64,000 nucleotides of DNA from Candidatus Sysuimicrobium tengchongense (lineage in GTDB: Bacteria > Sysuimicrobiota > Sysuimicrobiia > Sysuimicrobiales > Sysuimicrobiaceae): positions 59,303 through 123,302 of the forward strand of contig JAVKGW010000004.1 in assembly GCA_031460175.1 (NCBI GenBank), read 5' to 3'. The notes under the pieces are model-generated. The model did no database searches, had not been told where the DNA came from, and saw nothing but the letters and a program-made list of their open reading frames with translations. A program made the position numbers and the translations under genes. This document shows, piece after piece, positions 1 through 62,412 of the stretch (position 1 is its first letter; every line of letters starts with the position of its first letter).

Positions 1-2
1 CG

Positions 3-494
3 GACTCCCCCGTCACCATCACCCCGACCCTCCGGGAAGCGGAGGAGGCCATCGGGGCGGGCGCCCACATCCTCGCCCTGGACGCCACCGGCCGGCCCCG
101 ACCCGGAGGGGTCCCGCTTCCACAGCTCGTGCGGGAGATCCGCGGGCGCTGGGGGATTCCCCTCTGGGCGGACGTGAGCAACGTGGAGGAGGGAGTGGAG
201 GCGGCCCGGATGGGATTCGACGTGGTGGCCACCACCCTGGCGGGGTACACGGAGGCCCCCGGACCCCGTGATCCCTATGCTCCGGATTTCGCACTGCTCA
301 AGCGCTTGGTGGAGACGGTGACGGAGCGGTTCGGGGTCCCCGTGGTGGCGGAGGGTCGGATCTGGGAGCCGCATCAGGCGCGGCGGTGTTTGGAGCTGGG
401 CGCATTTGCGGTGGTGGTCGGAAGCGCCATCACCCGCCCTCAGCTCATCACGCGGCGGTTTGTGACGGCCATGAAGGGAGGAGAGCATGCGTAG
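3..494 (+). CDS. nanE: N-acetylmannosamine-6-phosphate 2-epimerase, 5' end runs off the window start
   Basis: The frame is open from the window edge. Its translation, DSPVTITPTLREAEEAIGAGAHILALDATGRPRPGG...VATTLAGYT...DFALLKRLV...VAEGRIWEP...LELGAFAVVVGSAITRP...RRFV, matches the characteristic NanE blocks (ALDAT-RPRP, GTTLSGYT, AEGRI, VVVGSAITRP). Confidence 0.85.
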   Translation, partial: DSPVTITPTLREAEEAIGAGAHILALDATGRPRPGGVPLPQLVREIRGRWGIPLWADVSNVEEGVEAARMGFDVVATTLAGYTEAPGPRDPYAPDFALLKRLVETVTERFGVPVVAEGRIWEPHQARRCLELGAFAVVVGSAITRPQLITRRFVTAMKGGEHA

Positions 495-1728
495 GACCCT
501 GGGCATCGCCATCGCGTCCCTCCTGCTGACCGCGTCGGTCCAGGCGGGAGCGCCGGAGATCCGCCTGGAGTTCTGGACCATCTCCCTGCGGCCTTTCTTC
601 ACGGACTACATCACGGAGCTCGCCCGCACCTACGAGCGGCAGAACCCCGGCGTGCGGGTGCGGTGGGTGGATCAGCCCGTGGGCGCCGTGGTGCAGAAGC
701 TCCTGGGAAGCCTCGCGGCGGGAACCCCCCCGGACGTGGTAAACCTCAACGTCCCCATGACCGCGGAGCTGGCCCAGCAGGGGGGGCTCTTTCCGCTCGG
801 GGATCTGTTGCGGCCCGAGGACCGCGACCGGTACTTCGAGGGGATGCTCCGGTCCTTCGAGATCGCGGGGAAGCTCTACGGCCTCCCCTGGTACGTGGCG
901 CCCCCCGTGGTGGCCTACCACGTGGGGATCTGGCGGCGGGCCGGGCTGGACCCGGATCGCCCGCCCCGCACCGCGGAGGAGCTGGTCGCGTACGCGAAGC
1001 GGATCAAGGACCGCACGGGCCTGTACGGGTTTATGCCCAACGTGGACGGCACGAACCTCCTGCAGCGGTTCCAGGAAGCGGGGCTTCCCATCCTGGCGGG
1101 AGGACGGGCGGTTTTTCACTCCGACCGTCACGTGCGGGAGCTCGAGCGGTGGGTGCGGCTCTTCCGGCAGGACTACTTCCCCGAGGAGACCCTGCGCCGG
1201 GGGTATCTGGGGGCCACGGAGCGCTACACCGCGGGACAGCTCGGCATGCTCATCACGGGCCCGCAGTTCCTGCTCCGGGTGCGGCACGACAACCGCGCGG
1301 TCTACGACCAGACGCGGGTGGGGCCCTATCCCCTCGACCGGGGCCGGGTGATCCACGCACCCCTCATGGGCCTCGCGGTTCCCAGGACCACCCGGCACCC
1401 GCGGGAGGCGGTGCGGTTCGCCCTGTACGTGACGGAGGACCGCAACCAGCTGGCCTTCTGCCGGATCGTCACCATCTTCCCCACCACCAAGGCCGCGGCC
1501 CGGGATCCCTTCTTCACCCGGCTTCCGCCGAAGCCCACCCCGGAGGACCACGCGCGCGTCCTCGACGCCCGCCAGCTCCCCTATGCCCGGGACCTCACCG
1601 TGGTGGTGCCGCACCAGGGGGAGCTCATGAAGGCCTTCCGGGACAACGTGGAGGCCGCCTTCTTCGGCCGCAAGACACCCAAGCAGGCCCTGGACGACGC
1701 GGTGCGCTTTTGGAATGCGCGGCTCTAG
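487..1728 (+). CDS. Sugar ABC transporter substrate-binding protein (CUT1-type, extracellular solute-binding family 1)
   Basis: The N-terminal signal peptide MRRTLGIAIASLLLTASVQA is followed by a fold typical of CUT1 sugar-binding proteins. It overlaps the nanE stop and the downstream permease start. Confidence 0.85.
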   Translation: MRRTLGIAIASLLLTASVQAGAPEIRLEFWTISLRPFFTDYITELARTYERQNPGVRVRWVDQPVGAVVQKLLGSLAAGTPPDVVNLNVPMTAELAQQGGLFPLGDLLRPEDRDRYFEGMLRSFEIAGKLYGLPWYVAPPVVAYHVGIWRRAGLDPDRPPRTAEELVAYAKRIKDRTGLYGFMPNVDGTNLLQRFQEAGLPILAGGRAVFHSDRHVRELERWVRLFRQDYFPEETLRRGYLGATERYTAGQLGMLITGPQFLLRVRHDNRAVYDQTRVGPYPLDRGRVIHAPLMGLAVPRTTRHPREAVRFALYVTEDRNQLAFCRIVTIFPTTKAAARDPFFTRLPPKPTPEDHARVLDARQLPYARDLTVVVPHQGELMKAFRDNVEAAFFGRKTPKQALDDAVRFWNARL

Positions 1729-2638
1729 AGCCCTCTCCCTCGCCCCGGCCCGCTCCCTCGCGGGGCCGCGGCTGCGCACCACCCTCACGGCCTACCTCTT
1801 CCTGGCCCCGGCCCTGGTGCTGCTCGGGGCCTTCACCTTCGCACCCCTCGCCTTCGGCACCCTCCTTGCCTTCGCGGACTACAACGTCCTTGCCCCGCCC
1901 CGGTGGGTGGGAGCGGAGAACTTCCGGACCCTCGCGCGGGATCCCGCCTTCTGGGTGGCCCTCCGGAACTCCCTCCGCTACCTCCTGGTGGTGCCCGCCA
2001 TCCAGGTCGCAGCCCTGGCGCTGGCGCTCCTGGTGAACCGCCGGCTCCCGGGGATCACCCTGTTCCGGGCCGCCTACTACGTCCCCGTGATCACCTCCTT
2101 CGCGGTGGCGGGGTTGATGTGGAACTGGATGTACGCCCAGCACGGGGTGGTGAACTGGGTGGGGCTCCGCCTGGGCCTGCTGGCGCGGCCCTTCGACTGG
2201 CTCAACCACCCCACCCTCGCCCTCTACGCGGTAATGCTCGTCACCTTCTGGAAGGGGATCGGGTACTACATGGTGCTGTACCTGGCGGGCCTGCAGGCGG
2301 TCCCGCAGGAGCTCCTGGAGGCCGCCCGGGTGGACGGCGCGGGTCGGGTTCAGGCGTTCCTCCTCGTCACCCTCCCCCTGCTGCGGCCCACCCTGCTCCT
2401 GTGCACCCTCCTCTCCACCCTGGCCGCGGTGAAGGTCTTCGAGGAGGTGTACGTGATGACGGGAGGAGGGCCGTTCGGGCAGACCACCACGGCCCTCCTG
2501 TACGTCTACCAGAAGGCTTTCCAGGAGTTCCGGTTCGGGCTCGCGGCCGCCGCGGGGCTGTTCGTGGCCGCCCTGGGCCTCGGGCTCTCGCTGCTATACG
2601 TCCGCCTCTTCCGGGAAGGGGGGCTGCGGCCGTGGTGA
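1715..2638 (+). CDS. Sugar ABC transporter permease (MalF-like)
   Basis: Multiple TM segments and an EAA loop (QAVPQELLEAARVDGAGRVQAFLLVTLPLLRPTL). It overlaps the binding-protein stop. Confidence 0.85.
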   Translation: MRGSRALSLAPARSLAGPRLRTTLTAYLFLAPALVLLGAFTFAPLAFGTLLAFADYNVLAPPRWVGAENFRTLARDPAFWVALRNSLRYLLVVPAIQVAALALALLVNRRLPGITLFRAAYYVPVITSFAVAGLMWNWMYAQHGVVNWVGLRLGLLARPFDWLNHPTLALYAVMLVTFWKGIGYYMVLYLAGLQAVPQELLEAARVDGAGRVQAFLLVTLPLLRPTLLLCTLLSTLAAVKVFEEVYVMTGGGPFGQTTTALLYVYQKAFQEFRFGLAAAAGLFVAALGLGLSLLYVRLFREGGLRPW

Positions 2639-3459
2639 GGAAACTCCGGGTCGCCCTGGGTCACGCGCTCCTGTACGGGCTGCTCTGCGGGATCGCCCTG
2701 CTCACCCTCTTCCCATTCCTGTGGACCCTCAGCACGGCCCTGAGCACCGCGGGAGGCGTCTTTACGTTCCCGCCCCGCCTGATTCCGGAACGCCCGGGGC
2801 TTGCGAACTTCGTGGAAGTGGTCCAGGCCCTCCCGGTGGGCCGCTACTTCCTAAACTCCGTGCTCCTCACCGTCTACGGCGTGCTGGGGACGCTTCTCGT
2901 GTGCAGCCTCGCCGCCTACCCGCTGGCCCGGATGGACTTTCCGGGCCGGGACGCGATCCTCGCCGCCCTGCTGGGCACGCTGCTCCTGCCGAACGAGGCC
3001 GGGTTCGTGGTGAACTTCCTCACCCTCGGAAGGCTGGGGCTTGTGAACACCTACACGGGCGTGGTCCTGCCCTCCCTGGCCTCCGTGGTGGGCATTTTCC
3101 TGCTGCGCCAAGCCTACCTCGCCATCCCCCAGGAGCTACTGGATGCGGCCCGGGTGGATGGGGCTTCGGAGCTCCGGATCTGGGCGCGGGTCGTACTTCC
3201 CCTCAGCCGCCCCGCCCTCGCGGCTCTGGGGATCCTCTCCTCCGTGGCCTACTGGAACGCCTTCATCTGGCCCCTCGTGGTCCTCCGGGACCCGGACCGG
3301 TACCCGCTCGCGGTGGGGCTGCTGTACCTGCAGGGGCTGTTCGCCCACAACACCCGTCTCATCGCTGCGGGCACAGTGCTGGCCATGCTGCCGATCCTGG
3401 CGATGTTCGTGTTTGCCCAGCGATCCTTCATGCGGGGACTGGAGGGGGCGGTTCGATGA
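2632..3459 (+). CDS. Sugar ABC transporter permease (MalG-like)
   Basis: The EAA motif (AIPQELLDAARVDGASELRIWARVVLPLSRPAL) is present. Only the 3' part of the long ORF 1903..3459 is protein-like; I chose the GTG start overlapping the upstream permease stop at 2636-2638. Confidence 0.8.
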   Translation: MVRKLRVALGHALLYGLLCGIALLTLFPFLWTLSTALSTAGGVFTFPPRLIPERPGLANFVEVVQALPVGRYFLNSVLLTVYGVLGTLLVCSLAAYPLARMDFPGRDAILAALLGTLLLPNEAGFVVNFLTLGRLGLVNTYTGVVLPSLASVVGIFLLRQAYLAIPQELLDAARVDGASELRIWARVVLPLSRPALAALGILSSVAYWNAFIWPLVVLRDPDRYPLAVGLLYLQGLFAHNTRLIAAGTVLAMLPILAMFVFAQRSFMRGLEGAVR

Positions 3460-4826
3460 CGACACCGCCGATCGTGGAGGTGGACCGGACCTGGGACGTG
3501 ATCGTGGTGGGCGGGGGCACCGCGGGGGCCATGGCGGGAATCGCGGCCGCCCGCATGAAGGCCCGCACCCTGGTGGTGGAGGCCTTCGGGTTTCTGGGCG
3601 GGACCGCCACGGGGGCCCTCGTCACCCCCATGATGCGCAACACCGCGGGCGGGGCGAACCTCAACCGGGGGCTCACGGAGGAGCTCAAGGCCCGGCTACG
3701 AGCCCGCGGAGATGCCGGGATCAGCCCCGACGGCAACGACAACTGGTTCAACCCCGAGGGGATGAAGTTCGTGCTGGAGGAGATGCTGCTCGAGGCCGGC
3801 GGGGAGGTGCTCTACCACACCCACTTCGTGCACCCGGAGGTGGAAGGGGGATGGGTGCACGGGATCCTGGTGCACAACAAGGGGGGGCTATGGCGACTGC
3901 GGGCCCGGGTGTTCGTGGATGCCACCGGGGACGCGGACCTGGCGGCGCGGGCGGGCGCGCCGTACGCAGGCGGGGATGAGGCCGGGGTCCACCAGGCGAT
4001 GACCCTCCGGTTCCACCTGGGCCACGTGGATCTATCCCGCCTCCACGACTTCCTTGTGGGGATCGGCATGCCGCAGCTGGGCCCGCGGTTCCTGCACCTG
4101 TGGATGGTGTGGGGCCGGGGCTCGCCGCTGGAACCCCTCTTCCGGCGGGCCGTGGAGGAGGGGGTGCTGCTCGAGCGGGACGGCGATTACTTCCAGGCCT
4201 TCAGCGTGCCCGGCCGGCCCGGGGAACTCTCCTTCAACTGCCCCCGCATCCGATCCGACCTCCACGACGGCACGGACCCCTGGCAGCTCTCGGCGGCCCA
4301 GGTGGACGGGCGCCGGGCCATCGAGCGGCTCGTGGCGTTTTGCCGTCGTTACCTCCCCGGCTGCGAGCACGCTTACGTGGTGATGGTGGCGCCCATGGTG
4401 GGCGTGCGGGAGACCCGGAGGATCGTGGGCGACTACGTGCTCACCCTGGAGGACATCCTCCAGTGCCGTACCTTCCCGGATGCCATCTGCCGCAACCATT
4501 ACCCCGTGGACATCCACCCGGTGCGGGGCGAGCGGCTCCGGTACGAGGACCGGGGGGAAGCTCCGTACTTCCGGCCCGAGGCCTACCATGAGATCCCGTA
4601 TCGGTGTCTGATCCCGCGGGGGCTGGAGAACGTGCTGGTGGCGGGGCGGTGCATCTCCGCCACCTTCGAGGCCCAGGCTTCCATCCGCATCCAGCAGAAC
4701 GCCCATGCCATGGGCCAGGCTGCGGGCGTGGCCGCGGCTCTCGCGGCCCTGCGGGGCGTGGGCGTGCGGGAGGTGGACGGCCGGGCGCTCCGGGAGCTTT
4801 TGCGGCAGCAGGGGGCGTACCTGTGA
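3456..4826 (+). CDS. FAD-dependent oxidoreductase (GIDA/FAD_oxidored-like Rossmann protein)
   Basis: The N-terminal dinucleotide-binding motif DVIVVGGGTAGAMAGIAAAR is present. The ATG at 3456 overlaps the permease stop (ATGA). The upstream part of ORF 2721..4826 is non-protein-like. Confidence 0.8.
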   Translation: MTTPPIVEVDRTWDVIVVGGGTAGAMAGIAAARMKARTLVVEAFGFLGGTATGALVTPMMRNTAGGANLNRGLTEELKARLRARGDAGISPDGNDNWFNPEGMKFVLEEMLLEAGGEVLYHTHFVHPEVEGGWVHGILVHNKGGLWRLRARVFVDATGDADLAARAGAPYAGGDEAGVHQAMTLRFHLGHVDLSRLHDFLVGIGMPQLGPRFLHLWMVWGRGSPLEPLFRRAVEEGVLLERDGDYFQAFSVPGRPGELSFNCPRIRSDLHDGTDPWQLSAAQVDGRRAIERLVAFCRRYLPGCEHAYVVMVAPMVGVRETRRIVGDYVLTLEDILQCRTFPDAICRNHYPVDIHPVRGERLRYEDRGEAPYFRPEAYHEIPYRCLIPRGLENVLVAGRCISATFEAQASIRIQQNAHAMGQAAGVAAALAALRGVGVREVDGRALRELLRQQGAYL

Positions 4827-6337
4827 CCGTGCTGTTCGTCCCGCCCGATACCCGGCCTCATCCCCTGGACCTTCCCCTGCAGCTGGCGCGGATCGCGGGG
4901 CTGGATGTTCGCACGCCGCCTGCTCCCTGCCTTCCCCGACTCAACGAACCCGGAGATCTCGAGGCCCTGCACGGATGGCTAATGGAGGGGGCCCAGGAGG
5001 CCACGGCAGCCGTGGTGAGCCTTGAAACCCTCACCCTGGGCGGCCTCATCCCCTCCCGGCGGGTGGAGACGCCTGTGGAGGAGGCGGTGCGGAGGCTGGA
5101 AGTGCTCGAGACGCTGCGGGCCCGGGGCGTGCGCATCTACGCGCACGCCACCATCCCCCGGGTGGCCACGGGGGACGATCCCTTCGAGGAGAGGCCGTAC
5201 TACGCGCGATTCGGCCCGCAGCTGCGGTCGTACAGCCTGTGGGCGGACCGGGCCGCGCGAGGAGACCCCGGGGCGGCACAGCGGCTAGAGGAGGTGAGAC
5301 ACGCCCTCCCTCCGGAAGTCCTCGCGGACTTCCTGGTTCTACGGGAGCGCGGCCGAAGGATCCACCTGGAGGCCCTGGAGCTCGTGCGGCGGGGGGTTCT
5401 CAAGCGGCTGCACCTCACCCTGGACGACACCGCGCCCGAGGGCCTTTCCGTGATGGACCGCCGGTTCCTCTCCGAGCGCGTCCGAGCCCTCGGCCTCCAG
5501 GACCGCGTGCGGATCTACCCGGGCGCAGACGAGGTTCCGTGCACCCTCCTTGCCCGGTTGCTGCTGGATGAAGTCGCCCGCAGGCCGCGGGTCCGGGTGA
5601 TCTCCCCCGTGGCAGACCTTGAGCGGATTCCCACCCGGTACGAGGACGAACCCCTGGGAAGATTGCTGCGCGGTCACCTGGAGGCCGCGGGCCTCCGGGA
5701 GGCCGGGCCGGGGGAGGAAGCGGATCTCGTGGTGGCCCTGAACGCGCCGGGCCGGGCCCAGGGCGAGGCCGCGCATCAGCCAGATCCCGGGTGGGTGGAC
5801 ACCCCGGAGCGGGACCTGGGAGCCTTTGTGGACCGCATCGGGGAAGCCGTGCGCGCCGGCTTACCGGTGGCGGTCCTGGACGTGGCCTACGCGAACGGCG
5901 CGGACGACCGGTTCGTGCGCCTCCTGTTGGACCGGGTGGACCCCACCCGGCTTGCGGCCTACGCGGGGTGGAACACCGCGGGAAACACCCTCGGAAGTGG
6001 CCTTGGACTCGGGGTGGCGACCCTGCTCGGGACGAATCCCCTGCCCCGACTGGAGGCGCTCCTCGTGCGGCTCGCGGAGGACTGGCTCTATCAGGCCCGG
6101 GTGCGGCAGGAGGCGGACCGGGCCCTGGAACACCCCGACCCTTACGACCTCGGGCCCCTCTGGCCCCGTGCCCAGGAGGAAGTGCGTGGACGCCTCGTTC
6201 CCCGCATCGAGGCCCTGTGGCGGGAGCACTTCGCCCCGAGGCTTCCTTCTGTCGCCCTCCGCCTGGAGCCGCCGGAGCTCAGTTGGCCTCGGCTGCACGG
6301 CGTCCGGGTCCGGCTGCGGATCGTGCCCGGAGGGTGA
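4823..6337 (+). CDS. Conserved hypothetical protein, about 500 aa (possibly DUF4127 family; recalled, not verified)
   Basis: The GTG at 4823 overlaps the oxidoreductase stop (GTGA). The protein-like translation starts VTVLFVPPDTRPHPLD... The upstream part of ORF 4604..6337 is low-complexity. Confidence 0.6.
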   Translation: MTVLFVPPDTRPHPLDLPLQLARIAGLDVRTPPAPCLPRLNEPGDLEALHGWLMEGAQEATAAVVSLETLTLGGLIPSRRVETPVEEAVRRLEVLETLRARGVRIYAHATIPRVATGDDPFEERPYYARFGPQLRSYSLWADRAARGDPGAAQRLEEVRHALPPEVLADFLVLRERGRRIHLEALELVRRGVLKRLHLTLDDTAPEGLSVMDRRFLSERVRALGLQDRVRIYPGADEVPCTLLARLLLDEVARRPRVRVISPVADLERIPTRYEDEPLGRLLRGHLEAAGLREAGPGEEADLVVALNAPGRAQGEAAHQPDPGWVDTPERDLGAFVDRIGEAVRAGLPVAVLDVAYANGADDRFVRLLLDRVDPTRLAAYAGWNTAGNTLGSGLGLGVATLLGTNPLPRLEALLVRLAEDWLYQARVRQEADRALEHPDPYDLGPLWPRAQEEVRGRLVPRIEALWREHFAPRLPSVALRLEPPELSWPRLHGVRVRLRIVPGG

Positions 6338-6340
6338 GCC

Positions 6341-7216
6341 GTGAGCTCGGTGATCCTGGCCCTGGACATCGGCGGCACCAAGATCGCCGCGGCCCGGGTG
6401 GTGGAAGGGGTTGTGCTGGAGCGGCGGGAGGTCCCCACCCCCGCTCGGGAAGGGCCCCAAGCGGTGATCCGCACCGCCCTGAGCCTCCTCGAGGACTGGA
6501 GGCGGGGGGCCGTGGGGCTCGGGGTGGCGAGCGGAGGGGTCGTCCACCGGGGTCGGGTGGTCCACGCGAACCCCCGCGTCCTGCCCGACTGGGAAGGGTT
6601 GGACCTGAGGGCGGTGTTCCGGGCAACCACGGGGCTACCGGTGGAGGTTTTGAACGACGCCCAGGCCGCGGCCTGGGGGGAGTACCGATACGGCGCGGGC
6701 CGGGGTCTTGAATCCCTGGCCTTCGTCACCGTCTCCACGGGGATCGGCGCGGGGCTGGTGCTCGGAGGCCGGCTCCTCTTGGGTACCGCGGGGCTCGCGG
6801 GCCACCTGGGGCACACGGTCTGCGAGCCGGAGGGGGAAGCGTGCGGGTGCGGCCGGAGGGGGTGCCTGGAGACCGTGGCCTCCGGGATGGCCCTCGCGGA
6901 GGCCGCCCGCCGGCGGTTCGGAGTCCCCCTCGACGCCCGGACGGTGTTGGAGCGGGCTCAGCACGGGAATCCGGAAGCTTGCGCGCTCGTGGACCGTGCG
7001 GCCGAAGCCCTCGCGCAGGCCCTGGGAGATCTCCAGGCCCTCGTGGACCCCCAGGCCGTGGTGCTGGGAGGAGGCGTGGGTCTCAACCCCTATTACCGGG
7101 GGCGCCTGGAGGCCGCCCTCTCCCGCCTTCCCGGTCCCTTCCGCCCCCGCTTGCTCCCCTCCGCCCTGGGACCGGACGCGGGCCTGCTGGGGGTGGCGGA
7201 CCGGGTAGGACTTTGA
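6341..7216 (+). CDS. ROK family sugar kinase (probable N-acetylmannosamine/N-acetylglucosamine kinase)
   Basis: The translation shows LALDIGGTKIAAA, the Zn motif CEPEGEACGCGRRGCLE, and a length of 291 aa as in NanK. It sits 3 nt after the upstream gene. Confidence 0.8.
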   Translation: MSSVILALDIGGTKIAAARVVEGVVLERREVPTPAREGPQAVIRTALSLLEDWRRGAVGLGVASGGVVHRGRVVHANPRVLPDWEGLDLRAVFRATTGLPVEVLNDAQAAAWGEYRYGAGRGLESLAFVTVSTGIGAGLVLGGRLLLGTAGLAGHLGHTVCEPEGEACGCGRRGCLETVASGMALAEAARRRFGVPLDARTVLERAQHGNPEACALVDRAAEALAQALGDLQALVDPQAVVLGGGVGLNPYYRGRLEAALSRLPGPFRPRLLPSALGPDAGLLGVADRVGL

Positions 7217-7553: not shown

Positions 7554-8327
7554 ATGCCGTTCACCGTGGAGGACTTCCAGGATCTCCTCCGGCTGCTGGA
7601 ACAACAGCCCCACTGGAAGAGTGCCCTGAGGGCGGCTCTGCTGGGCGAGGAGTTCCTGCAGCTCCCCGTCCTGGTCCGGGACCTGGTGGAAGCCCAGCGG
7701 CGCACCGAAGAGGAGTTGCGGCGGCTCGCGGACGCCCAGCGACGCACGGAGGAGCGGCTGGAGCGTCTGGAGCAGGCGGTGGCTCAGCTCGCGGAAGCCC
7801 AGCGGCGCACGGAGGAGCGACTGGAGCGCCTGGAGCAGGTGGTGGCTCAGCTCGCGGAAGCCCAGCGACGCACGGAGGAGACCGTGCGAACCCTTGTTCG
7901 GGAGGTCGGGGCGCTCAAGGGCGAGACTCTGGAGCGCCGCTACCGGGAGAGGGCTGCGAGCTACTTCCAGCGGATCCTCCGTCGCATCCGGGTGGTGGAT
8001 CACCAGCAGCTGGGACTGCTCCTGGACGATGCGCTGGACGCCGGCCACATCAGCCCGGAGGAGCGGGCGGACGTGCTGGAAGCGGACGTGGTGGCGGTGG
8101 GGCTTCGAGACGGCGAGGAGGTGTACCTCCTGGCGGAGGTCTCCGGTACGGTGACCGCCCATGACGTCCGACGTGCCCGGCGCAGGGCCGAGGTCCTGCA
8201 GCGGGCCGTGGGAAGGCCGGTCTTGAGCGCGGTCGCCGGAGAAGTCCTCTCCGACGATCCGGAGACGCTGGCAGAGGCCATGCAGGTGTGGCGCGTCCTG
8301 GACGGTCGGGCCGACCCCCCGGTTTAA
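7554..8327 (+). CDS. Hypothetical coiled-coil protein with tandem 21-aa repeats and a C-terminal restriction-endonuclease-like (Uma2/DUF820-like?) region
   Basis: The translation contains the repeats AQRRTEERLERLEQ[A/V]VAQLAE, then a C-terminal block ...EADVVAVGLRDGEEVYLLAEVSGTVTAHD... A TACAAT box lies 9 nt upstream of the ATG. Confidence 0.6.
   Translation: MPFTVEDFQDLLRLLEQQPHWKSALRAALLGEEFLQLPVLVRDLVEAQRRTEEELRRLADAQRRTEERLERLEQAVAQLAEAQRRTEERLERLEQVVAQLAEAQRRTEETVRTLVREVGALKGETLERRYRERAASYFQRILRRIRVVDHQQLGLLLDDALDAGHISPEERADVLEADVVAVGLRDGEEVYLLAEVSGTVTAHDVRRARRRAEVLQRAVGRPVLSAVAGEVLSDDPETLAEAMQVWRVLDGRADPPV
7691..7885 (+). repeat. In-frame 63-bp tandem repeat, about 3 copies (gcccagcgRcgcacggaggagcgRctggagcgYctggagcaggYggtggctcagctcgcggaa)
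   Basis: Near-identical 63-nt units appear at about 7733-7795 and 7796-7858, with diverged or partial copies on either side. They encode the 21-aa coiled-coil repeat. Confidence 0.8.
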
Positions 8328-8372: not shown

Positions 8373-8616
8373 GCCCAGTACCAGGGATGTTGGCTGGCTC
8401 TGAGCGGTTTTGTCAGGCGCTCCAGGTGTCGGATGCGCGAACCGGGAGGCTCAGCGCAGGGCCGATGCGGTCGGGCCATTCCAGCTCAAGCGCCCGCATC
8501 CCGGCCCGTAGCGCTTCCCGCAGCCGGGCCCGGCTGCGCGTAGATCCTCGCGATGGCGGATCTGATCCGACAGAGATCCTGGAGGGATTTGCGGGCGCAG
8601 GCTTCTCAGGCCGGAA

Positions 8617-8691
8617 TGGAGCCGGCGGCGGGATTCGAACCCGCAACCTGCGGATTACAAATCCGCGGCTCTTCCCTTGAGCTACGCCGGC
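8617..8691 (-). tRNA. tRNA-Thr (anticodon UGU), CCA encoded
   Basis: The reverse complement is GCCGGCGTAGCTCAAGGGAAGAGCCGCGGATTTGTAATCCGCAGGTTGCGGGTTCGAATCCCGCCGCCGGCTCCA. It folds as a cloverleaf with anticodon loop TTTGTAA. Confidence 0.85.
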
Positions 8692-8810
8692 CCCGTTCCG
8701 AAGTGTAGCACGAGTACAAGGGACCTGGATTCCAGGAATACGTGCGCTTTACAGGCCGCGTCCTCCACGGGTATGGTGTGGGGGAAGATGCAGGGGAGGA
8801 GGAGCATCCC

Positions 8811-9503
8811 ATGTGGAAGACCCTTCGGCATCTGGTACTCGCCGCGGAACCCCGGGGAGATGCGGACGCGGTCCACAGACTCGTGAAGGCAGCCACTGAG
8901 GGAGGGGTGGACGCCATCGCGATGGTCGGGGACCTCACCGGTCCGAACCCCACCGCGGAGACCCTTGCATCCCTCTTCAAGATCCTGGGATCCGCCAACC
9001 TGCCCACCTATCACGTCCCGGGGCCGGACGACGCGCCCATCGTGGACTACCTGCGGGAAGCCTACAACGTCGAGCTCGTCTACCCGTTCATGCACAGTGT
9101 GCACGGCACCTTCTCCATCGGCCCCGGACACGTGGTGTTCGCAGGGATGGGCGGGGAGATCATAGACGAGGCGACCCGCACCCGGGAGGAAGTCACCCGC
9201 CTGCGCTACGAGGCGTGGGAGGTGGAGTACCGCTTGAAGGTGCTGCAGGAGCTGAAGGACTCCCTCAAGGTTTTCCTGTTCACCACCCCGCCCGCGCACC
9301 GAGGTTTGGGGGAAGCGGGAAGCCAGGAGCTCGCCCAGCTCGTGAAGACCTATAACCCGCAGCTCGTGGTGGTGCGCACCCCGGAGTTGCGCACGGAGAC
9401 CCTGGGCGCCTCCCTCGTGGTGAGTCCAGGATTCCTCATCCAGGGATCGGCGGCTCTGTTTGACTTCCGGGAGCGTCGCGTGGAGCGTTTCTCCCTGTCG
9501 TAG
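8811..9503 (+). CDS. Hypothetical protein, possibly a metallophosphoesterase-like (YfcE/MJ0936-type) fold
   Basis: This takes the internal ATG (MWKTLRHLVLAAEP...) of ORF 8742..9503. The translation contains a VGDLTG motif. Start coordinate is ±1: the ORF-track frame implies ATG at 8811-8813 but it reads at 8812-8814 in the displayed sequence, consistent with an extra g near 8760. Confidence 0.5.
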   Translation: MWKTLRHLVLAAEPRGDADAVHRLVKAATEGGVDAIAMVGDLTGPNPTAETLASLFKILGSANLPTYHVPGPDDAPIVDYLREAYNVELVYPFMHSVHGTFSIGPGHVVFAGMGGEIIDEATRTREEVTRLRYEAWEVEYRLKVLQELKDSLKVFLFTTPPAHRGLGEAGSQELAQLVKTYNPQLVVVRTPELRTETLGASLVVSPGFLIQGSAALFDFRERRVERFSLS

Positions 9504-9526
9504 CCCTACACGGGTTCCTCTCCCGC

Positions 9527-11017
9527 TCAGTCCACGGCGGTGAGGACCGCCCACGCCAGATCGGGTTCCAGGTGCTCCTCCCGGTCGTCGATGCGCACCC
9601 GGATGCCCCCCTCGCGTACCTCCAGCACCTCGAGGCGGATTCCCGGAAGGACCCCCTTCTCGGATAGACGACGCAGAACCTCCGGATCCTCGTCCTCCAC
9701 CTCGAGGACGTCCACCACCTCCCCCTCCTGCCGTTCCATCAGCCGCCGGACCGGTTCGAAGGGTTCCCGGACATCTCTCGGAATGCGGGCACCGTGGGGA
9801 TCTCGAACCGGACGACCCAGGGCCTCGTCCAGCTCTGCCGCGAGCTCCCGGGGAGCTAGGTGCTCCAGGCGCTCCGCCTCCGCGTGCACGTCGGTCCACG
9901 GCACGCCCCCGCGGTCCACCAGGTACCGCTCCCACAGGCGGTGGGAGCGCACCAGGGCCACCGCCTGCTCCCGGCCCCGGGAGGTGAGCCGGACCCCACC
10001 GTCCCGCAGTTCCACCAGCCCCTCCTGCGCCGCCCGCCGGGCAAGGGCGAGCACCGCGGAGGGCGCAAGGCCGAGTCGCCGGGCCAGGAGGTCCACGGAG
10101 GCTCCTCCCCCGCGGTCCGCGAGGTAGGCCTGCTTCAACAGGTCCTCCCGCGCCACCCGCCGGGCGGCCTGACGTCGCCGCACCGCGTCCCACAGGACCC
10201 CCTCCCGCGGCCCCAGGAGCACGGCCAGGAGGAAGAGGACGGTGGCCACGAGCACCATGGTGGGGCCGGAAGCCACGTTCAGGTGGTAGGAGAGGTACAG
10301 GCCGCTCAGGCCGGAGACCACCCCCACCCCGACCGCCAGGGGGATCATGCGGGACATGCGGTCCGCCAGGAGGTAGGCGGTCGCCCCCGGTGTGATCAGC
10401 ATGGCCACCACCAGCACGATCCCCACCGCCTGCAGGGACGCCACGATGGTGACGGACAGCAGAAGCATGAGGGTGTAGTGGAGGGCTGCCACCGGGACCC
10501 CCATGGCGCTCGCCGCGGTGGGATCGAACGTCCACAGTACGAGCTCCTTGTAGAAGAGCGCCACCACCCCGAGCACCAGGACACCGGTTGCCGCGGTGAG
10601 CAGGAGGTCGACATCCGAGACGCCGAGCACGTTTCCGAACAGGATGTGGAAAAGGTCAATGGCGCGGCTGCGGATGCGGCTGATGAGCACAAAGCCCAGG
10701 GCGAAGGCTCCGGTAAACAGGATCCCCATGGCGGAGTCTTCCTTGATGCGGGTGTGCCGCTCCACCGCGGAGATCCCGAGCGCCGTCGCCATGCCCGTGA
10801 TCACCGCTCCCAGGAAGAAGGGAAGGTTCAGGAGGTATGCGAAGGCCACGCCAGGCAGCACCGCGTGGGAGACGGCATCCCCCAGCAGGGCCCACCGCTT
10901 CACCAGCAGAAAGCAGCTCAAAACCGCGCAGATCCCGCCCACCATCACCGCGGCCAGGAGGGCTCGCTGCATGAACGCGTACTGCATGGGGGCCACGAAG
11001 ATCTCGTGAAGGATCAT
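9527..11017 (-). CDS. Metal (Mn/Zn/Fe) ABC transporter permease fused to a C-terminal DtxR/MntR-like repressor (HTH + metal-binding + FeoA domains)
   Basis: The N-terminal ~290 aa are a typical ABC-3 permease (MQYAFMQRALLAA...LLGDAVSHAVLPGVA). The C-terminal ~200 aa read ...VDLLARRLGLAPSAVLALARRAAQEGLVELRDGGVRLTSRGREQAVALVRSHRLWERYLVDRGGVPWTDVHAEAERLEH...DPHGARIP... plus an SH3-like FeoA block. Confidence 0.8.
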   Translation of the reverse strand: MILHEIFVAPMQYAFMQRALLAAVMVGGICAVLSCFLLVKRWALLGDAVSHAVLPGVAFAYLLNLPFFLGAVITGMATALGISAVERHTRIKEDSAMGILFTGAFALGFVLISRIRSRAIDLFHILFGNVLGVSDVDLLLTAATGVLVLGVVALFYKELVLWTFDPTAASAMGVPVAALHYTLMLLLSVTIVASLQAVGIVLVVAMLITPGATAYLLADRMSRMIPLAVGVGVVSGLSGLYLSYHLNVASGPTMVLVATVLFLLAVLLGPREGVLWDAVRRRQAARRVAREDLLKQAYLADRGGGASVDLLARRLGLAPSAVLALARRAAQEGLVELRDGGVRLTSRGREQAVALVRSHRLWERYLVDRGGVPWTDVHAEAERLEHLAPRELAAELDEALGRPVRDPHGARIPRDVREPFEPVRRLMERQEGEVVDVLEVEDEDPEVLRRLSEKGVLPGIRLEVLEVREGGIRVRIDDREEHLEPDLAWAVLTAVD

Positions 11018-38501: not shown

Positions 38502-38577
<76 letters not shown>

Positions 38578-50580: not shown

Positions 50581-50655
50581 TGGTCGGGGCGGCCGGATTT
50601 GAACCGGCGACCTTCGGCTCCCAAAGCCGACGCGCTGCCCCTGCGCCACGCCCCG
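50581..50655 (-). tRNA. tRNA-Pro (anticodon UGG), C1:G72, CCA encoded
   Basis: The reverse complement is CGGGGCGTGGCGCAGGGGCAGCGCGTCGGCTTTGGGAGCCGAAGGTCGCCGGTTCAAATCCGGCCGCCCCGACCA. Confidence 0.8.
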
Positions 50656-60640: not shown

Positions 60641-62412
60641 CCGGATCCTCCCCAACGGCCCGCGGCGTACACCGTGGCCAGCAAGATTCCCACCACCAAC
60701 AGTCCCAGGGCGCTTGCCTCGCCCATGCGCCCGGCGTCGTACAGCTGCCAGATGCGCACACCCGCCACCACGCTCTCCGGCTGATACAGCAGCAGGGCCA
60801 GGGTGCTCTCCCGGTAGTGGGCCACGAAGTGCAGCAGCCACCCCCCGAGGATTCCCGGCAGGATCACGGGGATCAGCACCCGCCGCAGGACCGCGGTCCC
60901 GCTTGCCCCGTAGACCCAGGCTGCCTCTTCCAGCTCCCGACTCACCTGCATCACCGCGGCCCGGGCCGAGCGGCTCACGATCCCCGTGCGGGCCGCGTAC
61001 ACGAGCCCCAGCATCCACACCGTCCCGTACACCCCGTGCCCCACCCAGAGGTACAGAAGCATGGCGGCCAGCCCGAGGACCACGGAGGGAAGGGTGACGG
61101 AGGAGAGCAGCACGTAATCCATGCCGCTCCACACCCGGCCTCCCCGGCGCACATCGAGCCACGCCACCACCACCCCCAACCCCATGGCCAGGGTGGCCCC
61201 GAGCCCGCTCGCCAGGGCACTGTTCCCCAGGGCCCTCCAGGTGGTCTCCTCCCTCAGCACCTGCATCCAGGCCCCCGGATCCCACCGCCCCAGCCGTTGG
61301 AAACCGGTGCTGAAGGCCTCCGGGAAGCCACTCATGACGCCGAGAAGAACGATGGGGCCGAGGGCGAGGAGGGCGGCGAGGATCGTCAGGTATGCAAGGC
61401 CCAGGGCTTGCCCCACCGGCCCCAACTGCACCCCGCCCCCCTGAAATCCCTTGCCCCCGATGGTGGTGTACCGCTCGCTCGCACCCATCCACCGTCTGAG
61501 CCCGGCGAGCGCCGCAAACCCCAGGATCAGTCCCGGAACCGCGAGGGCCGCCACCTTCCCGTACTCCGGCAGGGCGGAGATGGAGTGCACGGCGAAGTAC
61601 AGGGTGCTGCTGTATACCCGGATTCCCGCGGGTGCCCCGAGCAGCAGCGGGATCTCGAAGCTCTCTAGGGCGATGAGGGCGGAGAGGATCCCGGCGGCGC
61701 CGATGGCCGGGCGGAGGAGGGGCCAGACGACCCGCCTCAAGGTCGCTGGCACGGTGGCGCCGGAAACCCAAGCGGCTTCTTCCAGCCGCAGATCCAGTCC
61801 CCGGAGGGCCCCGGAGATGAGGATGAACGTGAGGGGTGCTAGGCCAAGCCCCTGGGCCAGCACCATGCCCGGCATGCTGAAGGCATTGAGGAGGCCTCCC
61901 GAAATCCCCAGCCTCCGGAAGAGCACGTTCACGAGCCCGGTTCCCGGCGCGAACAGGAGGATCCAGCTGATGCTGTGCACCACGGGCGGGACCATGAGGG
62001 GAGCCACCATCAAGGCATAAAAGGCCCGCCGGCCGGGCACGTCCGAGCGCTCCACGAGCCACGCGGCGCTCCCCCCGGCCAGGAGGGCCACGCCCGTGGC
62101 ACCCACCACGTACACGAGGGTGTGCCCGAGCATCCGGCCGTAGGCGGGACCACCACCCAGCAGCTCCTGGTAGTTCCCTAGACCCCACCGGGCCGCCCGC
62201 TCGAAGGGCAGGAGGTTACTGCCCACCCGCAGGCTGCTCAGGACCAGGGTCAATAGCGGCATGAGGAGGAGCCACCCGGCCGCGAGGAGGACGAGGGCCT
62301 CAAAGGACCTCCGGCCGAGCACCTCCGTGAACGTCTTCGCCCGGGCCGGCCAGCTCAGTCCGGAAACCGGTTCCTCGCGGGCTTGGATCCTCAGCTGCAC
62401 TTCCTGCCCCAC
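60610..62412 (-). CDS. Iron(III)/thiamine-type ABC transporter permease (fused double permease, 12 TM)
   Basis: The translation contains two EAA-loop permease modules. Confidence 0.8.
   Translation of the reverse strand: MGQEVQLRIQAREEPVSGLSWPARAKTFTEVLGRRSFEALVLLAAGWLLLMPLLTLVLSSLRVGSNLLPFERAARWGLGNYQELLGGGPAYGRMLGHTLVYVVGATGVALLAGGSAAWLVERSDVPGRRAFYALMVAPLMVPPVVHSISWILLFAPGTGLVNVLFRRLGISGGLLNAFSMPGMVLAQGLGLAPLTFILISGALRGLDLRLEEAAWVSGATVPATLRRVVWPLLRPAIGAAGILSALIALESFEIPLLLGAPAGIRVYSSTLYFAVHSISALPEYGKVAALAVPGLILGFAALAGLRRWMGASERYTTIGGKGFQGGGVQLGPVGQALGLAYLTILAALLALGPIVLLGVMSGFPEAFSTGFQRLGRWDPGAWMQVLREETTWRALGNSALASGLGATLAMGLGVVVAWLDVRRGGRVWSGMDYVLLSSVTLPSVVLGLAAMLLYLWVGHGVYGTVWMLGLVYAARTGIVSRSARAAVMQVSRELEEAAWVYGASGTAVLRRVLIPVILPGILGGWLLHFVAHYRESTLALLLYQPESVVAGVRIWQLYDAGRMGEASALGLLVVGILLATVYAAGRWGGSGWTGRARRGR

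Follow-up and report, generated by a model that had tools for sequence, protein, structure and literature searches.

A DUF4127 protein as a candidate ManNAc-releasing enzyme in an operon with NanE, a NanK-type kinase and a CUT1 importer

Introduction

The catabolism of N-acetylmannosamine (ManNAc) by the kinase NanK and the epimerase NanE is textbook knowledge, and in bacteria the catabolic route to free ManNAc that has been well characterised is the cleavage of sialic acid by the lyase NanA. Canonical nan clusters, for example nanATEK of E. coli and the SAT-type ABC clusters of Gram-positive bacteria, combine NanA with NanK, NanE, a transporter and an RpiR or GntR regulator. What, then, could supply ManNAc in an operon that has the kinase, the epimerase and an importer but no nanA? 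We analyzed such an operon at positions 1-7216 of a 64,000-nt stretch of DNA (the window), where the list of open reading frames and our reading of the sequence place genes for NanE, a CUT1 binding protein, two permeases, a PF12831 flavoprotein, a DUF4127 protein and a ROK kinase.

Results

The gene content and coordinates of the original prediction were confirmed by the open reading frames, the sequence itself and Pfam. All genes lie on the plus strand. The window opens within nanE, the gene for ManNAc-6-phosphate 2-epimerase, and holds its 3' part (1..494, ORF 3-494; residues 75-237 of 237 aa; Pfam NanE 1.7e-41, NCBIfam PRK01130 1.4e-49); the start lies 220 nt before the window, and the full gene occupies positions 9295-10008 of the source contig L001, which belongs to an Armatimonadota MAG. 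At 6341..7216 follows a ROK kinase of the NanK (N-acetylmannosamine kinase) type, with a Pfam ROK match of 1.2e-65 and the zinc motif GH..C.CG..GC. It scores barely above the cut-off of the NCBIfam N-acetylmannosamine kinase subfamily model (283.8 bits, cut-off 283) and below that of the NanK equivalog model (264 against 450), and its best PDB matches are the NanK structures 2aa4 (E. coli NanK, 1e-60), 6jdc and 6jdb (range 1e-60 to 1e-57). With these two genes the locus has the NanK-type ManNAc kinase and NanE epimerase of a canonical nan cluster.

By Pfam and NCBIfam, the importer consists of a family-1 binding protein and two MalF/MalG-type permeases, as in CUT1 systems. The binding protein (487..1728) has an N-terminal signal peptide and matches SBP_bac_1 (6e-26) and SBP_bac_8; permease 1 (1715..2638) is UgpA/MalF-like (BPD_transp_1; NCBIfam UgpA and GlcT-like) and permease 2 (2635..3459) UgpE/MalG-like (BPD_transp_1; NCBIfam UgpE-like, 3.8e-39). 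No gene for an ABC ATPase (ABC_tran) was found at the locus; CUT1 loci usually have no ATPase gene of their own, and the ATPase is often encoded elsewhere. The best solved relative of the binding protein is 6wpm, an unnamed binding protein with no named ligand (2.7e-54), followed by the oligosaccharide binders 4qrz and 4r9f, which bind neutral oligosaccharides.

The genes are tightly packed. NanE and the binding protein overlap by 8 nt, the binding protein and permease 1 by 14 nt; the two permeases share a GTGA, permease 2 and the flavoprotein an ATGA, and the flavoprotein and DUF4127 again a GTGA, and 3 nt separate DUF4127 from the kinase. The independent gene calls of the public contig have the same boundaries, with the sole exception of permease 2, which they start one codon earlier (2632). 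Both the calls and the sequence thus bear out the prediction that every junction overlaps or is within 3 nt.

The window was also said to have no nanA, nagA or nagB, and tblastn with the E. coli proteins found none of them in its 64 kb (E <= 1e-2), nor did NagA and SIS-type NagB of Meiothermus find a match there at the same threshold. A nanA just outside the window, which would have completed a canonical pathway, was absent upstream: a RibD_C gene lies 17 nt 5' of nanE, followed further upstream by divergent mgtE, recO and glyQS, and the gene calls of the source contig include no nanA or other DHDPS-family gene within 9.5 kb upstream of the window.

The two remaining genes encode the pair for which no reaction had been assigned, and this held in Pfam, NCBIfam and PDB sequence, profile and fold searches. 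The cytoplasmic FAD-dependent oxidoreductase (3456..4826; Pfam FAD_oxidored 4e-122) covers the PF12831 profile from 1 to 416 of 416 positions with 408.9 bits (cut-off 27), carries the N-terminal dinucleotide-binding motif VVGGGTAG (GGGTAG core) at residues 16-23 and has many invariant Arg residues. Its structure matches are generic two-domain flavoenzyme folds only; these and its FAD-family Pfam match rule out an identity of the NanOx/YjhC type (Gfo/Idh/MocA).

The DUF4127 protein (PF13552; 4823..6337; 504 aa, without signal peptide; Pfam 5e-130) covers profile positions 1-488 of 489 with 434.8 bits (cut-off 27). At 50% identity the family falls into about 2,700 clusters, and the searchable literature contains no mention of it. 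The predicted structure of DUF4127 is a confident globular model (pLDDT 93). A fold search of this model against the PDB gave no whole-protein match and no resemblance to a known glycosidase or lyase; the similarities found were those of a generic three-layer alpha/beta fold, and sequence and profile searches of the PDB assigned it to no solved protein. Because the model resembles none of these, any reaction class is a guess. In the alignment about 70 positions are invariant, with Asp, Glu and Arg prominent among them; together with the model, they look like those of an enzyme. No Lys is invariant among 16 diverse sequences, and the nearly invariant Lys 124 is an Arg in the window protein, which excludes a class I (Schiff-base) pyruvate aldolase mechanism.

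These features bear on the idea that free ManNAc or GlcNAc is imported and that DUF4127, rather than catalysing ManNAc formation, binds sugars, has a regulatory or chaperone-like role, or uses ATP to act on the phosphorylated sugar. The generic nature of the fold similarities and the active-site-like invariant positions argue against such roles, a DNA-binding domain is absent from the protein, related loci already have RpiR or GntR regulators, and CUT1 systems with glycoside hydrolase neighbours usually transport oligosaccharides; we regard this explanation as very unlikely.

The comparative genomics that had been proposed covered 80 DUF4127 loci, collected by scanning species-representative genomes, with carriers of related loci in the Deinococcota, Bacillaceae, Paenibacillus and others across several phyla. 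DUF4127 repeatedly adjoins CUT1 permeases (38 loci), a binding protein (31), ROK (27) and NanE (23), as well as RpiR (21), NagA (15) and SIS-type NagB (14), and the window's binding protein is 35-51% identical to its counterparts in the Deinococcus and Bacillaceae loci. Among the 48 loci flanked by 6 kb or more on each side, 30 have a permease, 28 NanE or ROK, and 12 no partner gene at all; the Sericytochromatia copies lie in unrelated gene contexts. Related operons include genes for GH20, GH3, GH38, GHL10 and esterases, and a sialidase was seen in none of the loci. DUF4127 is also fused to NanE (P0358, on two independent contigs), to ROK (P0315, on two contigs, and P0379) and to PF12831 (P0276). 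Its adjacency to and fusion with NanK and NanE thus recur across phyla.

For the oxidoreductase/DUF4127 pair, whose conserved adjacency to nanE/nanK had been posed as a question, the outcome was less even: the association of DUF4127 with nanE and nanK stood, but the pair as the conserved core did not. PF12831 proteins adjoining DUF4127 form two subfamilies, about 25% identical, with 13 of type A, 19 of type B and 2 of intermediate identity in the 80 loci; the window flavoprotein is of type A and the natural fusion of type B. About half of the loci have no flavoprotein, including the complete operon of Meiothermus granaticius, with the order NanE-SBP-perm-perm-RpiR-99aa-DUF4127-ROK-NagA-SIS. 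There the route from ManNAc to fructose-6-phosphate is otherwise complete, leaving as unassigned DUF4127 and the 99-aa ORF (no Pfam match). The conserved core of the loci is DUF4127.

Could nanA, or another gene for a ManNAc producer, simply lie elsewhere, with DUF4127 and the flavoprotein trimming decorations (acyl, ether, ketal, anomer or ring forms) or handling a by-product? The search for NanA covered 73.5 kb of this genome (the window and upstream), NagA and NagB are also absent from the window and would have to lie elsewhere if the pathway is complete, and Deinococcus operons are visibly fragmented, D. hohokamensis having its DUF4127 gene 37 kb from the permease and flavoprotein genes. 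A true partner should nevertheless co-localise at times, and a NanA-like gene occurs in one of the 80 loci, on the opposite strand and 7.9 kb away, against frequent NanE, ROK and NagA; the fusions with NanE and ROK also argue for a core rather than a peripheral role. We judge a split pathway distinctly unlikely.

Alternatively, DUF4127 might be a non-homologous replacement of NanA that splits an imported acid, sialic or otherwise nonulosonic or ulosonic, or the anhydro or O-acetyl form of such an acid, into ManNAc and pyruvate, with the flavoprotein in the role of NanOx/YjhC, the oxidoreductase that acts for 2,7-anhydro-Neu5Ac. The CUT1, RpiR, esterase, oxidoreductase, NanK and NanE genes each have one counterpart in the nan clusters of Gram-positive bacteria, DUF4127 taking the slot of the lyase, and the many invariant Arg residues of DUF4127 and the flavoprotein would suit a carboxylate substrate. 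In one fusion locus a DcuC-type carboxylate carrier and a hydantoinase-family protein replace the ABC system, beside an SGNH esterase, a hint that the substrate is small and acidic and not an oligosaccharide. However, an invariant Lys for Schiff-base chemistry is missing, as are sialidase genes and, in about half of the loci, the flavoprotein; the GH38, GH3 and GH20 neighbours suggest neutral glycans containing Man or HexNAc; and the hosts, free-living thermophiles, soil Deinococcus and alkaliphilic bacilli, occupy niches not rich in sialoglycans. A replacement lyase therefore seems unlikely to us.

Discussion

We propose that the locus is one operon for the salvage of ManNAc from an imported glycoside, with DUF4127 yielding the free sugar, and put the chances of this at a little below even. 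The recurrence of this arrangement across several bacterial phyla, with DUF4127 in the slot of NanA, makes the protein a good candidate for a new ManNAc-releasing enzyme. The CUT1 system would import a ManNAc-containing, possibly anionic, oligosaccharide, from which cytoplasmic DUF4127 would yield ManNAc in place of the NanA lyase of sialic-acid operons; the NanK-like kinase would convert ManNAc to ManNAc-6-P, and NanE would convert this to GlcNAc-6-P. Conversion to fructose-6-P would fall to NagA and NagB, whose genes lie within the operon in Meiothermus and presumably at another place in this genome. The flavoprotein may be an accessory enzyme by which a modified substrate is prepared or unmasked. 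The glycoside hydrolase neighbours and the oligosaccharide-binding relatives of the binding protein plausibly support an oligosaccharide substrate, and the recurrent GH3, GH20 and GH38 genes would agree with cleavage of a glycoside no less well than with the oxidative or lyase-like step of the original prediction.

The substrate may be fragments of ManNAc-containing cell-wall glycopolymers, for example beta-ManNAc-(1,4)-GlcNAc units from secondary cell-wall polymers or the linkage units of teichoic acids, some of which carry 4,6-pyruvyl or O-acetyl groups; on these DUF4127 would act as a glycosidase or ketal hydrolase with carboxylate catalysis. This source is a guess whose one basis is a broad taxonomic overlap with the phyla that carry DUF4127 loci. 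A more specific version, doubtful as it stands, is that DUF4127 is a new family, of a fold arrangement not in the PDB, that supplies the long-sought ManNAc-releasing activity, as a beta-N-acetylmannosaminidase or by removing pyruvate ketals from ManNAc. Together with PF12831 flavoenzymes it would enable Terrabacteria to recycle or scavenge the secondary cell-wall polymers, pyruvylated and containing ManNAc, by which SLH and OmpM proteins are anchored. Terrabacteria here means Deinococcota, Armatimonadota, Bacillota and cyanobacterial relatives.

The place of NanA is held here by a widespread family of undescribed function, in an association that spans several phyla and is reinforced by fusions. 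Assigning a function to DUF4127 would establish an enzyme family not known before, perhaps one of glycoside hydrolases, and open a first way into the functions of the very large PF12831 family, which recurs in glycan loci; if the cell-wall idea is true, it would also reveal a turnover of ManNAc-containing wall polymers. Thermophilic orthologues from Armatimonadota and Meiothermus should suit biochemistry and crystallography.

Three known systems invite comparison. The 2,7-anhydro-Neu5Ac system of Ruminococcus gnavus and E. coli consists of a SAT2 ABC transporter and the oxidoreductase NanOx/YjhC, NanOx being an NAD-dependent Gfo/Idh/MocA enzyme. The operon in the window likewise has an oxidoreductase gene directly after the ABC importer in a nanE/nanK context, but the enzyme belongs to the FAD proteins of PF12831 and has the generic fold of a two-domain flavoenzyme, and NanA is missing. 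NamZ (DUF1343/GH171), an exo-N-acetylmuramidase, is a precedent for a Rossmann-like DUF that became a glycosidase in cell-wall sugar recycling. DUF4127 has no detectable sequence or whole-fold similarity to any solved protein, and we do not claim membership of that family; common to both are a setting in the cytoplasm or in wall recycling, Rossmann-like alpha/beta domains in place of the TIM barrel of classical glycosidases, and co-located GH3 NagZ-like enzymes. From canonical nan clusters the operon differs in that DHDPS-family NanA is absent at the locus, upstream and in 79 of the 80 related loci, with DUF4127 in its slot, and in that the DUF4127 loci have GH38, GH3, GH20 and GHL10 among their neighbours and no sialidase. 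It resembles them in its NanK-type ROK kinase, NanE and CUT1 importer, to which its relatives add an RpiR regulator, esterases, NagA and NagB, and the same route to GlcNAc-6-P would be expected.

Gene content and surroundings of the operon

DNA reading and ORF tables gave seven genes, all in the same direction, in a region with a G+C content of 70-72%. The first, nanE, is truncated by the window start (3-494, Pfam NanE 1.7e-41) and is followed on the forward strand by genes for a solute-binding protein (SBP; 487-1728, SBP_bac_1 and SBP_bac_8), two permeases of the UgpAE/MalFG type (1715-2638 and 2635-3459, both BPD_transp_1), an FAD-dependent oxidoreductase (3456-4826, FAD_oxidored PF12831 over its full length, 4e-122; here called the flavoprotein), a DUF4127 protein (4823-6337, PF13552 over its full length, 5e-130, with no NCBIfam model) and a ROK kinase (6341-7216, ROK 1e-65). 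The kinase scored narrowly above the cut-off of the NCBIfam N-acetylmannosamine-kinase subfamily (283.8 vs 283), and among solved structures it is closest to those of NanK (2aa4 at 1e-60). ORFs, Pfam and NCBIfam confirmed the gene content that the original prediction had read at 1-7216, namely nanE running off the window start, a CUT1 set, an oxidoreductase, a DUF4127-like protein and a ROK kinase. Its claim of junctions that overlap or lie within 3 nt was likewise borne out; in gene order, the genes overlap by 8 nt, by 14 nt and then at GTGA, ATGA and GTGA, and the last two are 3 nt apart. The public contig has the same boundaries in its gene calls except for a permease 2 start one codon earlier, and a search of the operon for promoters and terminators gave no signal exceeding shuffled expectation. 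A signal peptide is present in the binding protein and in neither DUF4127 nor the flavoprotein, which shows the latter two to be cytoplasmic by prediction.

The operon was also said to stand in a window free of nanA, nagA and nagB, and tblastn over the 64 kb agreed. E. coli NanA, NagA, NagB, NanT and NanQ detected nothing else there, and neither Meiothermus NagA and SIS-type NagB nor the GH, RpiR and esterase families that neighbour DUF4127 in other loci had a match. A nanA just outside the window could have completed a canonical pathway; none was found upstream of nanE in the at least 9.5 kb of the public contig inspected. A gene of the RibD_C family (252 aa, resembling NADPH-dependent reductases; 8520-9278 on the public contig L001) lies on the same strand 17 nt upstream of nanE, which starts at L001 9295, so that the operon probably begins with it. 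L001 is JAVKHH010000005.1 of the Armatimonadota MAG GCA_031460035.1; an exact sequence match puts window position 1 at its position 9515. Of the 80 related loci, one alone has kept the RibD_C gene, that of the close relative Ca. Sysuimicrobium calidum (84% identity). A RibD_C sugar reductase beside a flavin oxidoreductase could form an oxidation-reduction pair. Further upstream are divergent mgtE (two copies), recO, glyQS and others.

Downstream of the kinase are a 340-nt gap, a 257-aa ORF, tRNA-Thr, a metallophosphatase and a metal ABC system. The ORF (7554-8327, forward strand) is among the gene calls of the public contig and has no Pfam match; within it ARAGORN placed a 98-nt 'tRNA-Phe' (7822-7919, forward strand), which is probably a false positive, the Rfam tRNA model having confirmed the tRNAs at 8617-8691, 38502-38577 and 50581-50655 and not this call. 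By precomputed Pfam, a 496-aa protein (9527-11017, reverse strand) combines an ABC-3 metal permease with Fe_dep_repr_C and FeoA, that is, a permease fused to the C-terminal domains of a DtxR-type regulator; an ABC ATPase gene comes after it. A second CUT1-type permease gene, a distant relative (~31% identity), lies at 61639-62190 on the reverse strand, indicating another putative sugar ABC system towards the distal end of the window.

Gene neighbourhoods of DUF4127

Among 1.84 billion representatives, a profile search found 2,691 DUF4127 clusters at E <= 1e-3. The homologues, from Armatimonadota, Meiothermus/Calidithermus, Deinococcus, Truepera, Sericytochromatia and others, are annotated solely as 'DUF4127 family protein'. 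Scanning one genome per species yielded at least 549 confirmed matches, from which 80 loci were kept, and their neighbours were mapped by tblastn with the window proteins, reference proteins and families from all-against-all clustering. Near DUF4127 we found CUT1 permeases in 38 of the 80 loci, an orthologous binding protein in 31, ROK in 27, NanE in 23, RpiR in 21, GH38 in 16, NagA in 15, SIS-type NagB in 14, GH3 in 10, an alpha/beta-hydrolase in 9, GHL10 in 7 and GH20 in 3. Where both flanks covered at least 6 kb (48 loci), permeases occurred in 30, NanE or ROK in 28 and a PF12831 gene in 23, and 12 loci were without all three alike. The conserved adjacency to nanE/nanK considered for the pair of flavoprotein and DUF4127 thus held for DUF4127, but not for the pair, the PF12831 gene being present in fewer than half of these loci.

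Individual gene orders illustrate this. Meiothermus granaticius has GH3 / NanE-SBP-perm-perm-RpiR-99aa-DUF4127-ROK-NagA-SIS and no flavoprotein (perm, permease), an operon with a full route from ManNAc to fructose-6-P in which the sole unassigned proteins are DUF4127 and the 99-aa ORF, which has no Pfam match. Because Meiothermus operons combine NagA, SIS-type NagB and DUF4127, a role of DUF4127 as NagA or NagB substitute was ruled out. Deinococcus irradiatisoli and D. rubellus have (NanE)-SBP-GH20-perm-perm-FADox-hydrolase-DUF4127 (FADox, flavoprotein), D. geothermalis has perm-perm-FADox-hydrolase-DUF4127-ROK, and Pseudalkalibacillus has esterase-SBP-NanE-RpiR-ROK-perm-perm-DUF4127-GHL10-FADox.

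GH38, the alpha-mannosidase family, directly adjoins DUF4127 or ROK at its 16 loci (L007, L010, L011, L014, L021, L022, L030, L038, L039, L046, L058, L059, L063, L069, L072 and L080), and operons bearing it often also have NanE, NagA and NagB; its target might be a residue of alpha-manno configuration in the same substrate. GHL10 (PF02638, a YngK-like putative glycosidase with DUF4985) follows DUF4127 in Bacillaceae (L067 11625-13292; L086 14179-15789) and is near it on one Sericytochromatia contig; by gene context it is one more glycosidase-like, uncharacterised family with a link to DUF4127. D. irradiatisoli has a second DUF4127 paralogue just past its main operon, a shorter one (432 aa; L085 12527-13825, reverse strand) that adjoins a Peptidase_M23 gene; this hints at a cell-wall connection of the family.

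Fusions of DUF4127 and the two flavoprotein lineages

Among the best 150 DUF4127 representatives, four clearly exceed 500 aa in length and proved by Pfam to be fusions, with PF12831 in P0276 (1014 aa), with ROK in P0315 (844 aa) and P0379 (795 aa) and with NanE in P0358 (824 aa); P0358 and P0315 were each found on two independent contigs. The fusions occur in the contexts ROK-DUF4127::FADox-NanE-GntR-SBP-perm-perm, SBP / perm-perm-NanE-RpiR-GH20C-like-DUF4127::ROK and ROK-DcuC-hydantoinase-172aa-FADox-GH38-DUF4127::NanE-SGNH esterase. Together with these repeated contexts, they provide strong genomic evidence that DUF4127 would share a pathway with NanK and NanE. They are poorly compatible with a canonical pathway that has its nanA elsewhere and in which DUF4127 merely trims decorations, and a NanA-like gene is co-localised in only 1 of the 80 loci, 7.9 kb away on the opposite strand; we consider such a split pathway quite unlikely.

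On the metagenome-assembled contig L092 (407-11125; GCA_040777365.1) a DcuC-family carrier stands in place of the ABC system, and a 709-aa hydantoinase/oxoprolinase-family protein, a GH38 without C-terminal domains and an SGNH esterase surround DUF4127::NanE. This suggests that the substrate in this lineage may be small, acidic and possibly cyclic (lactam, lactone or anhydro).

Two PF12831 subfamilies occur near DUF4127, type A, to which the window copy belongs (13 of the 80 loci), and type B (19 of 80). They are ~25% identical overall and have an invariant R-E-x-R-R motif in common. The flavoprotein part of P0276 shares 49% identity with the type B proteins that Trueperaceae and Bacillaceae encode downstream of DUF4127, and aligns with the type A protein of the window in short segments only (~30% identity). 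Two PF12831 lineages therefore appear to have been recruited beside DUF4127, which supports a functional link between the two families, but the P0276 fusion is only indirect evidence for such a link of the type A copy. In D. hohokamensis type A stays with the permeases and DUF4127 is 37 kb away; type A is apparently tightly coupled to the permeases.

No known reaction was assigned to either member of the pair by profile search; such an assignment would have spoken against the original prediction. Sequence and profile matches of the flavoprotein were confined to the dinucleotide-binding motif of other flavoenzymes, structure-based assignment gave generic flavoenzyme folds only, and a full-text literature search on PF12831 yielded nothing useful. 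A relationship of PF12831 proteins to XalA, a xanthan lyase specific for pyruvated mannose, would have tied the flavoprotein to pyruvylated mannose. This lead was dropped, since a review lists XalA as PL8 (PMC10881899).

Sequence and predicted structure of DUF4127

An AlphaFold model built on a 16-sequence alignment was confident (pLDDT 93.1, pTM 0.92). The 16-sequence profile had no match among PDB sequences, and Foldseek of the model against the PDB gave TM values of only 0.13-0.19, which are meaningless scores. Some 70 positions are invariant across these 16 diverse sequences, mostly Asp/Glu pairs (E122-E123, D201-D202, D236-E237 and E274-D275; also D353), with ten Arg and no Lys, His, Cys or Ser among them. 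This pattern would fit carboxylate catalysis, possibly metal-assisted, with a substrate that is anionic or strongly polar. Because no Lys is invariant, a NanA-like class I aldolase (Schiff-base) mechanism was ruled out. Generic domain similarities are the sole support for a non-catalytic DUF4127, or for one with phosphorylated sugars as its substrate, and we regard both as very improbable.

The Arg-rich sites would suit a non-homologous sialate or ulosonate lyase, with the flavoprotein as a NanOx analogue, and the locus resembles Gram-positive nan clusters one-to-one. However, no sialidase was seen in the loci, the neighbours include GH38, GH3 and GH20, the ecology of the hosts is unfavourable and the flavoprotein is dispensable, so that we think a lyase unlikely.

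Proposed role and candidate substrates

We propose instead that the DUF4127 step would supply free ManNAc from an imported compound. This compound is probably a glycoside, since CUT1 systems usually carry oligosaccharides, the solved relatives of the binding protein that have named ligands are oligosaccharide binders, and the exo-glycosidases GH3, GH20 and GH38 occur in related operons. It may carry a carboxylate, given the R-E-x-R-R motif of the flavoprotein and the DcuC-type carboxylate carrier in one locus. ManNAc-containing cell-wall glycopolymers are a plausible, hypothetical source, the link being one of taxonomic overlap only: the phyla in the polymer literature are broadly those with DUF4127 loci. 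The epitope recognised is 4,6-pyruvyl-beta-ManNAc (PMC10628300; PMC6030368). In the searchable literature we found no beta-N-acetylmannosaminidase and no enzyme stripping the pyruvate ketal from ManNAc, and a pyruvylation review had nothing on enzymatic depyruvylation. Full-text searches returned no paper mentioning DUF4127, and nothing relevant on nanE with Deinococcus.

Comparison with known systems

That a sugar operon should contain an orphan enzyme is by itself no great surprise to specialists. What makes DUF4127 a well-justified target for deorphanisation is its fusions, its phyletic breadth and a fold arrangement without a match among solved structures, and the conserved, sharply defined operon is suited to direct biochemical testing. 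Judged from its genes, the locus functions in the manner of nan-type operons for amino-sugar catabolism, and its NanK, NanE and CUT1 parts are ordinary family members. It falls outside the canonical sialic-acid clusters, since NanA, the lyase that defines them, was sought and not found locally. The flavoprotein and DUF4127 are members of Pfam families without an assigned reaction, and what is new here is a predicted ManNAc operon whose entry step is non-homologous and uncharacterised.
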